Source of the DNA: an uncultured Gammaproteobacteria bacterium
Lineage (GTDB): Bacteria; Pseudomonadota; Gammaproteobacteria; UBA9214
Reading direction: 5' to 3'
Length of the DNA: 64,000 bases
Assembly: GCA_963710815.1 (NCBI GenBank)
Contig: CAVQCA010000154.1
Location: 8,750 to 72,749 of the forward strand
Each line of letters starts with the position of its first letter. Within the stretch, counting starts at the first letter, position 1. The notes below the pieces were generated by a model that was not told the origin of the DNA, did no database searches, and saw only the letters and a program-made list of their open reading frames with translations. Shown here in pieces: positions 17,322 to 38,629 of this stretch. The translations under genes and the position numbers were made by a program.

Positions 17322-17425
17322 GGGAGGAAGATCCGGGACGTTCTCAACCGGGAGCTGCCGGTGATGCCTGTAGATAGGAATGACGGATGACATGCCATCA
17401 TGTGCATGTCACAGGAAGGGACAAT

Positions 17426-17629
17426 ATGGCAATTGGTACAGTGAAGTGGTTCAGCAATTCCAAGGGTTATGGTTTTATATCTCCGGATGAGGGCGGAGAA
17501 GACGTCTTTGCACATTTCTCCGCTATTGAAATGGACGGTTACAAGACGCTGAACGAAGGCCAGAAGGTACAATTTGAAATCACCGAGGGGCCGAAGGGTC
17601 TGCAGGCTGCGAATATCAAGTCTACATAA
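17426..17629 (+). CDS. cspD: Cold-shock domain protein (CspD position)
   Basis: [33 protein letters not shown]; divergent from clpS as is typical for cspD. Confidence 0.9.
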
Positions 17630-17686: not shown

Positions 17687-17840
17687 CTTGGGTCTGTCGG
17701 ACCCGGGATTGATCAGACGCACTGGCAGGAGAGCGGCCCCCGATTCCCCGTTGCATGGAGTGCTCATGCAGCCCGAAATCGTGCCAGGCAACCTACACAC
17801 TCTCCCGCCATGCCCACCATGATCACCCGGGCCCGGCAGG

Positions 17841-17844
<4 letters not shown>
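17687..17844. repeat. Long-hairpin repeat family A, diverged copy
   Basis: Aligns by eye with 37399-37566 (GGATTGATC, CTGGCxGGAGAGCGGCCC, CGTTGCAT, ATCGTG, CTCTCCCxCCATGC); lies between convergent cspD and icd and abuts the icd stop. Confidence 0.8.
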
Positions 17845-19100
<1,256 letters not shown>

Positions 19101-19113
19101 GAAACCGTCCTTC

Positions 19114-19137
19114 GTGATGTGATGTGATGTGATGTGA
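19114..19137. repeat. Pentanucleotide tandem repeat (GTGAT)x~4.8 just upstream of icd
   Basis: GTGATGTGATGTGATGTGATGTGA, 14-37 nt upstream of the icd ATG. Confidence 0.85.
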
Positions 19138-19188
19138 GGGAAGTGTTGAATTCGAACCGCAGGCGGGAAAGTGTACAGGATGCAGTTC

Positions 19189-19223
19189 AAAAAAAAGACC
19201 CCTGACATGACAGGGGTCTTTGT
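19189..19223 (-). terminator. Rho-independent terminator between the secreted-protein gene and icd
   Basis: Minus strand AAAGACCCCTG-TCATGT-CAGGGGTC followed by T8. Confidence 0.8.
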
Positions 19224-22077: not shown

Positions 22078-22194
22078 CTCACCGCAAAGACGCAAAGTGT
22101 TTAATTGTTTTCATAAAAGAATTTCTCTGCGTCCTTTGCGTCTTTGCGTTGAAGGCGGTGTTTATGGACGGATACCTTGCGCCTTTGCGGTGAA
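22078..22194. repeat. Palindromic repeat family B (CGCAAAGACGCAAAG...CTTTGCGTCTTTGCG)
   Basis: ~98 nt highly similar to 31371-31468, followed by an extra half-site CTTGCGCCTTTGCGGTGA. Confidence 0.9.
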
Positions 22195-31298: not shown

Positions 31299-31496
31299 AT
31301 GGCCACGGAAGCACACGGAAATACACGGAATCATTTCATTGTAATTCGTGTTCATTCACAAATGAATAAACTCACCGCAAAGACGCAAAGTGTTTTATTG
31401 TTTTTGATAAAGAATTTCTCTGCGTTCTTTGCGTCTTTGCGGTGAAAATGGTGTTTATGGACGGACACTAATTATTCCGTGTGCTTCCGTGGCCAT
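31299..31496. repeat. Nested palindromic element: outer 22-bp inverted repeats enclosing a family B copy
   Basis: ATGGCCACGGAAGCACACGGAA (31299-31320) / TTCCGTGTGCTTCCGTGGCCAT (31475-31496), perfect. Inner TCACCGCAAAGACGCAAAG (31372-31390) / CTTTGCGTCTTTGCGGTGA (31427-31445), perfect. Confidence 0.92.
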
Positions 31497-32523: not shown

Positions 32524-33939
32524 TCATGGCAGCAGGCGGTTGATCAGTCGGGCCAGCAGGCGCACCCTGCCGGAAAAGAGTCGAGGCGCATAGCTGGCAT
32601 TGATCGCGCGCCGGTGGATCTGTGAAAGTGTCGGATAGGCGTGGATCAGGCGGCTGATGTCCCCTGCCTTCGCCTTGACCTGTATCGCCAGTGCCAGTTC
32701 ATGGATCAGCTCGCCGGCATGCGCGCCGACGAGGCTCGTCCCCGCCACCCGGCCGCGGACAAGCAGTATCTTGAGAAACCCCTCACCGACGTCATCCGTG
32801 ATGGCGCGGTCGATCTCGCTGAACGGAAAGCGCGCGACGCTGTAGCGCAGCCCCTGCGTCTGCGCCTGCTGCTCGGTCAGGCCGACCTCCGCGACCTCGG
32901 GGTCGGTATAGGTGACACGCGGGATCACCCGGTAATCGACCTTCCGGGGAATCCTGAACAGCAGGCTGGCAAGCACGATGCCGGCCTGGTACTCGGCCAT
33001 GTGCGTGAACTGGTAAGGCCCGCAGACGTCACCGATGGCGAAAATATGCGGCTGGCGGGTACGCAGGCGTGCATCGACCACCACCGCTTTGGTGTTGTGC
33101 TCCACCCCGGCCTCGTCGAGCCCGAGTCCGAAGACGGCAGGGCGGCGTCCGGCGGCCACGAGTATGCGTTCGCACTCGACACTCTCACCGTTGGTGAGAA
33201 ACAGCTGACGGCTGTCGCCGTCGCGCCGGGCACTCTCCACCTGGCAGGACAGGTGCAGGGTGATGCCCTCATCCTCCAGCACCTGGCGAAGCACGGCGGA
33301 GGCCTCGCTGTCGGCCACGGGCAGAATCCGCTCGGCGGCCTCGACGATCGTTACCCGGCTGCCCAGCCGGGCAAATGCCTGCGCCAGTTCGACGCCGATC
33401 GGTCCGCCGCCGATGACGGCCAGTCGGGGAGGCAGTTCCCGACGTTTGAAGATGGTCTCGTTGGTGTCATAACCCGCCTCGGCGATGCCCGGAATCGGCG
33501 GAACAACCGGCTGCGATCCGGTCGCGATCACGAAACGTTTGGCCCGGATGACCTCCTCATTGACGGTGACCTCTTGGGGATTGAGAAACCGGGCTGCGCC
33601 GAAGCGTACATCACAACCGTAGCGGCGAAAGCGCTCGGGGTCGTCATGCTGCTGGATATGGTCGATGACGCTGTCGACCCGGTCCAGCACCCGGTTGATG
33701 TCGATTTCCGGGGCGCAGGCGGTCAGACCGACCCGTGCGGCCCGGCGCATCCGGTGCGCGAGCCGTGCGGTATTGATGAGCGTCTTGCTGGGTACACAGC
33801 CGCTGTGCAGGCAATCGCCGCCGAGGCGTTCCGATTTCTCGATCAGCGTCACGCGCAGGCCCAGCTGCCCGGCAACGCTCGCGATGACCAGACCGCCCGG
33901 ACCGCCGCCGATCACCACCACGTCCTGTTTCCTGCTCAC
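32524..33939 (-). CDS. Pyridine nucleotide-disulfide oxidoreductase (dihydrolipoamide dehydrogenase/MerA-like family)
   Basis: GGGPGG FAD site, GGDCLHSGCVPSK, GGGPIGVELAQ, HAYPTL; no HMA domain and no C-terminal Cys-Cys. Confidence 0.88.
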   Translation of the reverse strand: MSRKQDVVVIGGGPGGLVIASVAGQLGLRVTLIEKSERLGGDCLHSGCVPSKTLINTARLAHRMRRAARVGLTACAPEIDINRVLDRVDSVIDHIQQHDDPERFRRYGCDVRFGAARFLNPQEVTVNEEVIRAKRFVIATGSQPVVPPIPGIAEAGYDTNETIFKRRELPPRLAVIGGGPIGVELAQAFARLGSRVTIVEAAERILPVADSEASAVLRQVLEDEGITLHLSCQVESARRDGDSRQLFLTNGESVECERILVAAGRRPAVFGLGLDEAGVEHNTKAVVVDARLRTRQPHIFAIGDVCGPYQFTHMAEYQAGIVLASLLFRIPRKVDYRVIPRVTYTDPEVAEVGLTEQQAQTQGLRYSVARFPFSEIDRAITDDVGEGFLKILLVRGRVAGTSLVGAHAGELIHELALAIQVKAKAGDISRLIHAYPTLSQIHRRAINASYAPRLFSGRVRLLARLINRLLP

Positions 33940-36367: not shown

Positions 36368-37402
36368 ATGCACGCGAGTCGTTTCGTCCCCGAAACGGCG
36401 CCCCAGTCCGGTATCCTGCTGACCTGGCCGCACGCACACAGCGCCTGGGCTGACAGCCTGGAGGCTGTCAGCACGGTGTATCTCGACATTGCCCGAGCCG
36501 TCTCGGCGCACGAGAAACTGCTCATCGTCTGCTACGACAGCGACCACACCGAAGCAGTCCGGCAGGCATGCGCACAGGCCGGCATACCGCTCGACGCCAT
36601 ACGCTTTTTCATTGCCCGCACGAATGACACCTGGATTCGCGACTACGGCCCCCTGGCGGTTGCAGACGGTGACGGCATACGCCTGCTCGATTTCGTCTTC
36701 GACGGTTGGGGAAAAAAATACCCGGCCGGGCTGGATAACGAGGTCACGCACATGCTCGAATCGGCGGAGGTCTTCGGCGCCGCCGCCTGCCGGCACATCC
36801 CGCGGGTGCTCGAGGGTGGCAGCATCGACACCGACGGCCAGGGCAGTCTCCTGACCACCTCGCACTGCCTGATCACGAACAGCCGCAACCCGGGCTATGA
36901 CAAACCGGCATTTGAACAGCTGTTTGCCGCTGAGCTGGGCATAGAACGTGTGCTCTGGCTCGATCACGGGGAACTCGAGGGGGACGACACCGATGCCCAC
37001 ATCGACATGCTGGCCCGTTTCTGTTCCCCGCACACCATCGCCTACACGCAAGGTACCAACAAGCGCGACAGCCACTACGCGGGATTCAAGGCGATGGAAG
37101 CGCAACTGCGCACATTCAGGACCCGGGAGGGCCACCCCTATCACCTGCTCCCCCTGCCGCTGCCGGCGCCGGTGCGCACCGCCGCCGGCGAACGACTGCC
37201 GGCGAGCTACGCCAACTTCCTCATCATCAACGGCGCGGTGCTGGTACCGGTCTACGATGACCCGGCCGACGCCATCGCGCTCGAACACCTCGCCGGGGCC
37301 TTTCCCGACCGACGAGTGATTGCGGTCAACTGCCTGCCACTGATCCACCAGTTCGGCAGCCTGCACTGCGCTACAATGCAGTTGCCGGCGGGTATCCTCT
37401 AG
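36368..37402 (+). CDS. aguA: Agmatine deiminase / peptidylarginine deiminase family
   Basis: WPH, DTWIRDYGP, LEGGSIDTDG, GDDTDAHID, ASYANFL, GSLHCATMQ. Confidence 0.92.
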   Translation: MHASRFVPETAPQSGILLTWPHAHSAWADSLEAVSTVYLDIARAVSAHEKLLIVCYDSDHTEAVRQACAQAGIPLDAIRFFIARTNDTWIRDYGPLAVADGDGIRLLDFVFDGWGKKYPAGLDNEVTHMLESAEVFGAAACRHIPRVLEGGSIDTDGQGSLLTTSHCLITNSRNPGYDKPAFEQLFAAELGIERVLWLDHGELEGDDTDAHIDMLARFCSPHTIAYTQGTNKRDSHYAGFKAMEAQLRTFRTREGHPYHLLPLPLPAPVRTAAGERLPASYANFLIINGAVLVPVYDDPADAIALEHLAGAFPDRRVIAVNCLPLIHQFGSLHCATMQLPAGIL

Positions 37403-37566
37403 GAGCCTGTCGGGTTTAGGATTGATCTACTGCGCTGGCGGGAGAGCGGCCCATAGTTCCCCGATATCTCGTTGCATAGCACCACTATGCGCCTCGATAT
37501 CGTGAAACCCTGTGCTCGCTCTCCCACCATGCTCGCTACGACCACCTAAATCCGACAGACCCCTAG
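37399..37566. repeat. Long-hairpin repeat family A, CTAG-bounded MITE-like copy
   Basis: Terminal IRs CTAGGAGCCTGTCGGGTTTAGG / CCTAAATCCGACAGACCCCTAG (19/22), inner GGGAGAGCG/CGCTCTCCC, apex GCATAG-CACCA-CTATGC; the left CTAG contains the aguA stop. Confidence 0.88.
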
Positions 37567-37605
37567 CGGTTCCGTCAAATTTTTTCGTGTTAGCCGTAAA
37601 ACCCG

Positions 37606-37690
37606 TTCAACGCAAAGACGCAAAGATTCCTGATTATTTCTAGCAATGAATTTCTTTGCGTTCTTTGCGTCTTTGCGTCTTTGCGGTTAA
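37606..37690. repeat. Palindromic repeat family B, third copy
   Basis: AACGCAAAGACGCAAAG ... CTTTGCGTTCTTTGCGTCTTTGCGTCTTTGCGGTT. Confidence 0.85.
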
Positions 37691-37738
37691 TTGTTCTGTT
37701 TTATGCCAATACAACAACCATCTAAACTACCCGCGCCT

Positions 37739-38629
37739 ATGAATACCCGGAAACTCACCGTTGGATTGATCCAGCTTCGCTGTAGCGCGGAACTCGACCG
37801 GAACCTGACGGCCGTGATCGAGGGCATCCGCAAGGCGGTGATCCGGGGCGCCCGGCTGATCCTGCTGCCGGAACTTCATAACAGCCCGTATTTCTGCCAG
37901 ACGGAGGATGTGGACAATTTCGACCTGGCCGAGACCATACCCGGACCCACTACCGAGCGGCTCGGCGCGCTTGCCGCCGAACTCGGCGTCGTCATCGTCG
38001 CCTCGATCTTCGAGAAGCGGGCGGCAGGGCTCTACCACAACACGGCGGTCGCACTCGACAGCGACGGCCGAATCGCCGGCCGTTATCGCAAGATGCACAT
38101 ACCCGACGATCCCGGGTATTACGAAAAATTCTATTTCACGCCGGGTGACCTGGGCTTCACCCCGGTGCCGACCGCCGTCGGCACACTCGGCATCCTCGTC
38201 TGCTGGGACCAGTGGTATCCGGAAGCGGCACGGCTGATGGCCCTCGGTGGCGCGCAGATCCTGCTCTACCCGACGGCGATCGGCTGGAACCCGGGAGATG
38301 CCGACGACGAAAAGATGCGCCAGCGCGAAGCCTGGCTGACGATCCAGCGCGCACACGCCATCGCCAACGGGCTGCCCGTTCTGAGCTGCAACCGCACAGG
38401 CTTCGAGGCGGACGCCTCCGGGCACACCCGGGGCATCGAGTTCTGGGGCAGCAGCGCGGTGTTCGGCCCCCAGGGCGAGGTCATCGAACAGGCCACGGAG
38501 AACGAGGCCGGGATCATTATCGCCACGCTTGATCTGCAGCGTACGGAACAGGTGCGACGGCTGTGGCCCTACCTGCGCGACCGGCGCATCGACGCCTACC
38601 AGGACCTGCTGCGGCGCTTTTGCGATTGA
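37739..38629 (+). CDS. aguB: N-carbamoylputrescine amidase (nitrilase family)
   Basis: LPELH, YRKMHIPDDPGYYEKFYFTPGD, CWDQWYPE, YPTAIGW; follows aguA. Confidence 0.92.
   Translation: MNTRKLTVGLIQLRCSAELDRNLTAVIEGIRKAVIRGARLILLPELHNSPYFCQTEDVDNFDLAETIPGPTTERLGALAAELGVVIVASIFEKRAAGLYHNTAVALDSDGRIAGRYRKMHIPDDPGYYEKFYFTPGDLGFTPVPTAVGTLGILVCWDQWYPEAARLMALGGAQILLYPTAIGWNPGDADDEKMRQREAWLTIQRAHAIANGLPVLSCNRTGFEADASGHTRGIEFWGSSAVFGPQGEVIEQATENEAGIIIATLDLQRTEQVRRLWPYLRDRRIDAYQDLLRRFCD

Follow-up and report, generated by a model that had tools for sequence, protein, structure and literature searches.

The window analyzed here is a 64,000-nucleotide stretch of the genome of an uncultured gammaproteobacterium (contig CAVQCA010000154.1). 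It carries two copies of a short hairpin repeat: an older one between the convergent genes for a cold-shock protein and isocitrate dehydrogenase (icd), and a younger one at the end of aguA, upstream of an aguB-like gene. Gene calls are based on a simple test on the G+C content at the three codon positions. The features at the two sites are as follows, with the repeat labeled as a putative MITE.

17387..17629, + strand: cold-shock protein gene (PF00313), convergent with icd, with the putative MITE in between
17687..17847, + strand: putative relic hairpin MITE copy of 161 nt, oriented like the 37399 copy
17687..17690: left target copy, degenerate, with CTTG in place of the family's CTAG
17691..17707, + strand: left terminal inverted repeat of the relic, GGTCTGTCGGACCCGGG (GAGCCTGTCGGACTTAGG in the family)
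17753..17769, + strand: apical hairpin of the relic, GCATGG-AGTGC-TCATGC
17821..17843, + strand: end of the relic right arm and right terminal inverted repeat, GATCACCCGGGCCCGGCAGGCTA
17844..17847: right target copy, degenerate, with CCGG in place of the family's CTAG
17841..19208, - strand: icd, isocitrate dehydrogenase (PF00180, 301.8 bits), with its stop within the tip of the putative MITE
36368..37402, + strand: aguA, agmatine deiminase family (PF04371, 370.6 bits)
37399..37566, + strand: young canonical copy of the putative MITE, 168 nt, with CTAG at each end
37399..37402: left CTAG of the young copy, whose TAG is the aguA stop
37563..37566: right CTAG of the young copy (target duplication)
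37691..38629, + strand: aguB-like carbon-nitrogen hydrolase gene (PF00795), downstream of the young copy

Both copies are small and non-coding (158-168 nt), and the open reading frames that overlap them are chance occurrences. They are homologous and align end to end, each on the + strand, with an identity of about 78% over MAFFT columns and about 70% by BLAST; the 37399 copy is 96% identical to its nearest paralogue. An initial annotation of this DNA had described the two as diverged in sequence while retaining their pairing, and the full-length + strand alignment contains the stem differences it listed. In the outer stem the 37399 copy has GGGTTTAGG/CCTAAATCC where the 17687 copy has GGACCCGGG/CCCGGGCCC; the corresponding apex sequences are GCATAG/CTATGC and GCATGG/TCATGC (17753-17758 and 17764-17769 in the latter), a difference that amounts to one compensated pair and one G-T wobble. 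The rod-like structure proposed for both copies is likewise found, as each folds far beyond shuffled sequence: the 17687 copy at -76.8 kcal/mol (z -5.4) and the 37399 copy at -80.8 kcal/mol (z -9.2), and in neither case does any of 200 shuffles fold as well. A TAG stop is present at both copies as described, that of aguA at 37400-37402, inside the left CTAG, and that of icd at 17841-17843 on the - strand, where it is formed by the final CTA of the relic's right terminal inverted repeat. The extent originally given to the older copy, 17687-17844, has the correct start, but homology to a CTAG...CTAG frame carries its end to 17847.

A second palindromic repeat, built of CGCAAAG units and unrelated to the first, occupies 37600-37680 and recurs at 22078-22175 and 31371-31468. 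The occurrence directly downstream of the young MITE copy lies between aguA and aguB; same-genus genomes without the MITE have it in the corresponding position.

Copies, spread and target of the repeat family

The genome to which the window belongs (the home genome) is a 4.04-Mb draft of 158 contigs, in which the 168-nt copy has 40 full-length places at 80-96% identity, together with fragments and length variants. All home-genome copies share the frame CTAG-GAGCCTGTCGGACTTAGGATTGATC ... GATCACCTAAGTCCGACAGGCTC-CTAG, and the family ends GAGCCTGTCGGACTTAGG ... CCTAAGTCCGACAGGCTC are present in about 40 home-genome copies and in 163 copies overall. The family also includes variants 184 to 378 nt long, in which both ends are retained and additional modules occupy the left arm. 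In the long variants (296-378 nt), position 33 of the left arm is followed by an inserted tandem array of one to three units, each about 41 nt long (GGCCCAGGCCAGTCTCTCGACCGGCACCCGGTCTCACCTTCT); the variants at C31:31204-31540 and 32664-33041, C110:1601-1896 and C19:4313-4607 constitute a minisatellite inside the MITE. Two contig pairs share the same copy along with identical flanks (C92:44-213 and C157:55673-55840; C113:443-606 and C58:43486-43648), which indicates redundant draft contigs or strain heterogeneity in the bin.

The family is also present in all four same-genus genomes and is patchily distributed across the wider taxonomic family. A scan of one genome per species yields at least 115 stretches in other species, nearly all of them uncultured marine or sediment Gammaproteobacteria, with hosts that include Sedimenticola, Thiomicrorhabdus, Halieaceae, Chromatiales, and Acidiferrobacteraceae. 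Typical copies occur in MAGs labeled Bacteroidetes (L183, L207) and Gemmatimonadales (L185), reflecting either horizontal spread or mis-binned contigs. One apparent insertion shared by two genera, with similar right flanks (L077 and L104), is non-orthologous, the match being confined to the element. A DNA search of plasmid records with the whole MITE gives no match, and a literature search by its terminal sequence returns unrelated primer matches only and no account of the family. A named RNA family, which the initial annotation had considered worth seeking in Rfam, did not emerge: the whole window has 0 matches at the gathering score and nothing relevant at E <= 1.

Comparison with related genomes reveals the insertion target. 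At the site of the copy on contig C135, a same-genus genome reads AAGCG-CTAG-GTCGGC where the home genome reads AAACG-CTAG[MITE]CTAG-GTCAGC. Neither window copy is present in any of the four same-genus genomes, and the aguA site there carries a single GTAG or GTAA and no MITE. CTAG flanks both sides of 90 of the 163 copies, and within the flanking tetranucleotide the inner base is practically invariant and the outer base variable. Because CTAG is palindromic, duplication of the full tetranucleotide is indistinguishable from duplication of TA within a preferred CTAG, and the duplicated unit may be either.

CTAG is the rarest tetranucleotide of the home genome (1,230 sites, observed/expected 0.08), and 73 of these sites adjoin MITE ends. 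Since it contains TAG on both strands, CTAG is found mainly between genes and at stop codons; a rough gene call places the terminal CTAG of the element on the stop of the neighboring gene at 9 of 39 loci. The location of copies at TAG stops thus follows from a target that contains TAG, with no functional coupling needed, and the same property explains the recurrent pattern of repeats on TAG stops in GC-rich genomes.

In roughly 16% of copies per end, and roughly independently at the two ends, the CTAGG flank has become CCAGG (CCTGG at the right end), as at C157:81786-81955 and C99:1097-1264; the window copies are unaffected. This T-to-C hot spot resembles the outcome of very-short-patch repair, but the genome has no Vsr gene.

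Relation to IS1182-family insertion sequences

One same-genus genome contains an intact 1.57-kb insertion sequence with the structure CTAG-CAGCCTGTCGGACTTAGA ... CAAGTCCGACAGCCTG-CTAG. Its 457-aa transposase scores 363 bits on NF033551 (cut-off 270) and comprises DUF772 and DDE_Tnp_1 domains. The MITE ends are identical to these same-genus IS1182-family ends at 16 of 18 bases. They are also identical at 14 of 15 bases to the ends of an ISAzo2-family copy on plasmid 2 of Aromatoleum aromaticum EbN1 and of an IS1182 copy on a Pseudomonas aeruginosa plasmid, both of which read CAGCCTGTCGG(G/A)CTT. In all three full-length IS1182 copies read, CTAG flanks both sides. At the level of sequence, the ends and the CTAG target of the MITE family are shown to be those of IS1182-family insertion sequences.

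The features held in common with the IS1182 family (NF033551; the ISAzo2-family and P. aeruginosa plasmid copies, and ISPse1 of Paracoccus) are (C/G)AGCCTGTCGGACTT on both ends, CTAG directly outside each end, and a short target duplication, which for ISPse1, described as a trapped element, consists of 4-bp direct repeats (PMC3281130). Unlike these elements, the MITE has no transposase gene, measures about 168 bp rather than 1.5-1.65 kb, and forms a covarying hairpin over its entire length, with no resemblance to the examined insertion sequences beyond about 18 bases. Because similarity to the same-genus IS and the other full-length elements stops there, no parent from which the MITE could have arisen by internal deletion was found.

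In the home draft assembly, a search with NF033551 recovers no intact IS1182 with matching ends. The sole find with a MITE-type end is a frameshifted, truncated N-terminal relic at C95:7400-8000 on the - strand, which begins CTTG-GAGTCTGTCGGATTTAAC. An autonomous transposase with the same termini, which the initial annotation had raised as a prospect, therefore exists intact in a same-genus genome but not in the home draft. Since the only remnant is frameshifted and truncated, the family may be stranded in its own genome, with no mobilizing enzyme, to the extent that a draft assembly, in which an intact IS1182 could be missed, is representative. Other candidate partners were rejected. Orphan MITE ends in the home genome adjoin ordinary genes only, an IS-like contig (C1) has unrelated ends, and three further IS1182 matches in relatives (L031, L032, L034) have ends that differ from those of the MITE.

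We estimate a probability of roughly three in four that 17687-17847 is an old, immobilized copy of a non-autonomous MITE of about 168 bp that was moved in trans by IS1182-family DDE transposases. The insertion of the family at CTAG, with CTAG left on both sides, is shown directly by the sequence comparisons. Judged from the literature rather than from an ISfinder comparison, the family appears to be a previously undescribed member of a known element type.

Correia/NEMIS, ERIC, and RUP are classical bacterial MITEs of 100-170 bp with terminal inverted repeats. Like the MITE described here, they are gene-adjacent and can form RNA hairpins, but they are unrelated in sequence and use other targets (TA for Correia and RUP). 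The closer parallel in terms of ends is MITEPye1 of Paracoccus yeei, an IS1182-derived hairpin MITE that is likewise non-coding and intergenic, with 18-bp terminal inverted repeats near IS1182 ends, 4-bp direct repeats, and a predicted long stem-loop (PMC11578231). MITEPye1 resides in an alphaproteobacterium at 1-3 copies per chromosome that are 96-100% identical (PMC11578231), whereas the present family, compared with it by description, has dozens of copies per genome, occurs in many gammaproteobacterial lineages, and exhibits deep covariation.

Conservation of the rod and the level at which pairing is maintained

Covariation was analyzed in an alignment of 85 copies with mutual identity below 93%, drawn from other species as well as from the home genome and its relatives. 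The alignment was restricted by length, since a MAFFT alignment that took in all length variants was gappy and its RNAalifold consensus poor. From the 85 copies, RNAalifold predicts 40 pairs, 31 of which are kept through two-sided changes. When the minimum-free-energy fold of the canonical copy, a rod of 67 pairs, is projected onto the alignment, 88.6% of cells pair, a value that none of 500 shuffles reaches, compared with 75.8% after shuffling and 33-43% with partner columns slid. Pairs altered on both sides number 45 of 67 (35.2 in shuffles), double-change cells 703 (269 in shuffles), and the covariation score is 0.326 (0.130 in shuffles), with kinship between copies only partly removed by these controls. 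The compensatory changes first noticed between two copies thus extend to strong covariation across a larger alignment, and on this basis the rod of the MITE family is genuinely conserved.

Several further properties are nearly constant across the family. Element length stays within 166-170 nt across class-wide diversity, the internal-loop motifs TCTACTGCG / CTCGCTACGA and TCGTT / CGCCTC are conserved, and covariation extends into the sub-terminal repeat. Two G-T pairs are nearly invariant, at columns 33-149 in 82 of 85 copies and at columns 78-99 in 73 of 85. The totals of G-U and A-C are equal, at 312 each; the two nearly invariant pairs are U-G on the + strand, and elsewhere A-C, the counterpart of G-U on the opposite strand, is about twice as frequent as G-U. 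In 80 of 84 copies it is the complementary strand that gives the better fold, and the indications as to which strand folds are mixed overall.

The distribution of recent mutations indicates at which level pairing is maintained. Among 56 young copies, all of them 86% or more identical to the consensus of the set, stems and unpaired positions have the same density of private (singleton) variants, 0.43 per column, and of the 59 such variants that fall in stems, 39 disrupt a pair. Where a variant is shared between copies, compensation is common, the partner being changed as well in 198 of 512 carrier cells. The orientation of the element relative to the 3'-adjacent gene is evenly divided (11 versus 10). 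Given that private mutations are equally frequent in stems and loops, that orientation is random, and that the window copies are absent from relatives, pairing appears to be maintained in the lineages that produce copies and not site by site for the host. The family is therefore a good natural data set on why some MITEs keep a full-length hairpin, in that it offers many copies, deep divergence, and free decay of single copies set against compensated change between lineages.

These data also bear on whether the rod instead benefits the host, as a structured RNA or cis-element (such as a terminator or stabilizer between the cold-shock gene and icd) compensated at a site under host selection. Although the 17687 copy folds well beyond shuffled sequence and occupies the position of a hairpin that follows icd in same-genus genomes, it is missing from all four of those genomes and is not followed by a terminator-like T run. 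It also carries 7 broken pairs and 5 wobbles of the recent type. Transcribed hairpin repeats with compensated stems do exist, for instance bcr1 (cited in PMC3184786); the present family, however, has no Rfam match even at E <= 1, is oriented at random with respect to transcription (11 versus 10), and shows no depletion of private mutations in stems. A host role of this kind is accordingly considered improbable. The initial annotation had left the choice between a structured ncRNA and a hairpin-recognized MITE or REP-like element, and between selection and mobility. The IS1182-type ends and CTAG target favor the MITE, and the ncRNA role is unsupported, with no match in Rfam. The family is read as mobile, while selection on the 17687 copy is not borne out, as private stem mutations are frequent, orientation is random, and the site is empty in relatives.

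The arms might also remain complementary with no selection at all, if a change in one arm of the quasi-palindrome were copied onto the other by template switching or gene conversion. Templated mutation is known to act on long palindromes, and many pair switches in the alignment are transversions with few intermediates (GC 48 / CG 31 / AU 5; AU 36 / CG 34), as such a process would leave them. Homogenization of the arms should, however, erase asymmetries, and bulges, unpaired motifs, and two G-T mismatches are kept class-wide; moreover, the private mutations of young copies are mostly uncorrected (39 of 59 break a pair). We regard templated correction as no better placed than a host role. The last alternative, that a Y1/RAYT tyrosine transposase and not a DDE enzyme moves the element as a single-stranded hairpin, in the manner of a REPIN, is very hard to sustain: REPINs are likewise long hairpins with compensatory changes (PMC3116915), and the genome encodes Y1_Tnp proteins (5 hits), but 14-16 of 15-18 terminal bases agree with IS1182 inverted repeats, the CTAG flanks are as in full-length IS1182 copies, the target duplication is seen against an empty site, and the Y1_Tnp genes lie on contigs that lack the MITE or 8.8 kb from the nearest copy.

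Both bcr1 of the Bacillus cereus group (PMC3184786) and the REPINs of Pseudomonas (PMC3116915) resemble the MITE as small mobile intergenic repeats with compensated stems whose individual copies lose stability (PMC3184786, PMC3116915). They differ from it in their ends, their target duplications (5 bp for bcr1), and their presumed enzymes (RAYT for REPINs).

Under the preferred reading of an IS1182-mobilized MITE, the fold, or a cruciform, is most likely needed for, or a great aid to, mobilization, the element being so short that its duplex DNA could not loop. A stricter version, which we offer tentatively and consider doubtful, holds that the rod of about 167 nt would be an obligatory folded substrate (cruciform, ssDNA, or RNA) that brings the ends together for an IS1182-type transposase or a host factor. 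This would account for the nearly fixed length, the loop motifs, the two G-T pairs, and the sub-terminal covariation. If true, it would represent structure-dependent mobilization of a MITE by a DDE transposase, of which we know of no description.

The 17687 relic and the end of icd

Compared with the family consensus, the relic has lost 8 nt in one deletion and a single nt at the left tip, and its right arm contains a small insertion. Across 62 comparable pairs, 41 are unchanged, 13 are changed on one side, and 8 on both sides, with 7 of the latter 8 still able to pair. All but one of the 13 one-sided changes are transitions, producing 5 G-T and 7 A-C pairs. The overlap of changed sites within pairs (hypergeometric P = 0.0027, a statistic inflated by site-rate differences) makes the clustering of changes in the same pairs significant, though not overwhelming. 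Part of this compensation signal comes free, since two transitions in one pair restore pairing automatically.

Four of the 8 two-sided changes are also carried by other family members. Among the states of the relic found elsewhere, GC at pair 20-149 is present in 14 of 84 copies (the relic included) and TA at 68-100 in 54. The home genome, the loci compared, and a metagenome scan yielded no close relative of the relic, the best identity being about 70%. The metagenome scan for the 17687-type stem (CTGTCGGACCCGGGATTGATC) gives one solo end and one chance coding match, and no sub-family. Because no close relative was found, we infer rather than observe that the relic descended from a separate sub-lineage, and compensation may also have taken place at the site itself.

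A plausible history can be outlined for this copy. The relic would have inserted in a well-paired state, from a sub-lineage different from that of the 37399 copy, after the species split from its sequenced same-genus relatives. It would have landed on the icd stop codon by way of a CTAG target that contains TAG. Most of the two-sided differences between the 17687 and 37399 copies would already have been present in the source copies at insertion. Individual copies would then decay freely, and at this site decay would account for the 13 one-sided changes, for the indels, and for the CTAG repeats having become CTTG and CCGG. Later mutations would have shifted the icd stop by one codon into the tip of the MITE.

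The terminus of icd differs from that of its relatives in a corresponding manner. It reads CAC GCC CGG TAG (HAR-stop) here and CAC GCC TGA (HA-stop) in the four same-genus genomes. The extra Arg codon, CGG, is the CCGG right target copy read on the - strand, and the new stop comes from the MITE junction (17841-17852, - strand). The former target TAG probably became CGG, while the first codon of the MITE tip would have changed from GAG to TAG. In the same-genus genomes, icd is followed by a small hairpin, CCCACGCC-GTTCA-GGCGTGGG, the left half of which was replaced by the MITE insertion. No host function is indicated for the 17687 copy, and a genome annotation should list 17687-17847 as the relic of a MITE and not as an RNA gene. 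The icd end, longer by one codon, illustrates on a small scale how a mobile element can rewrite the end of a gene.
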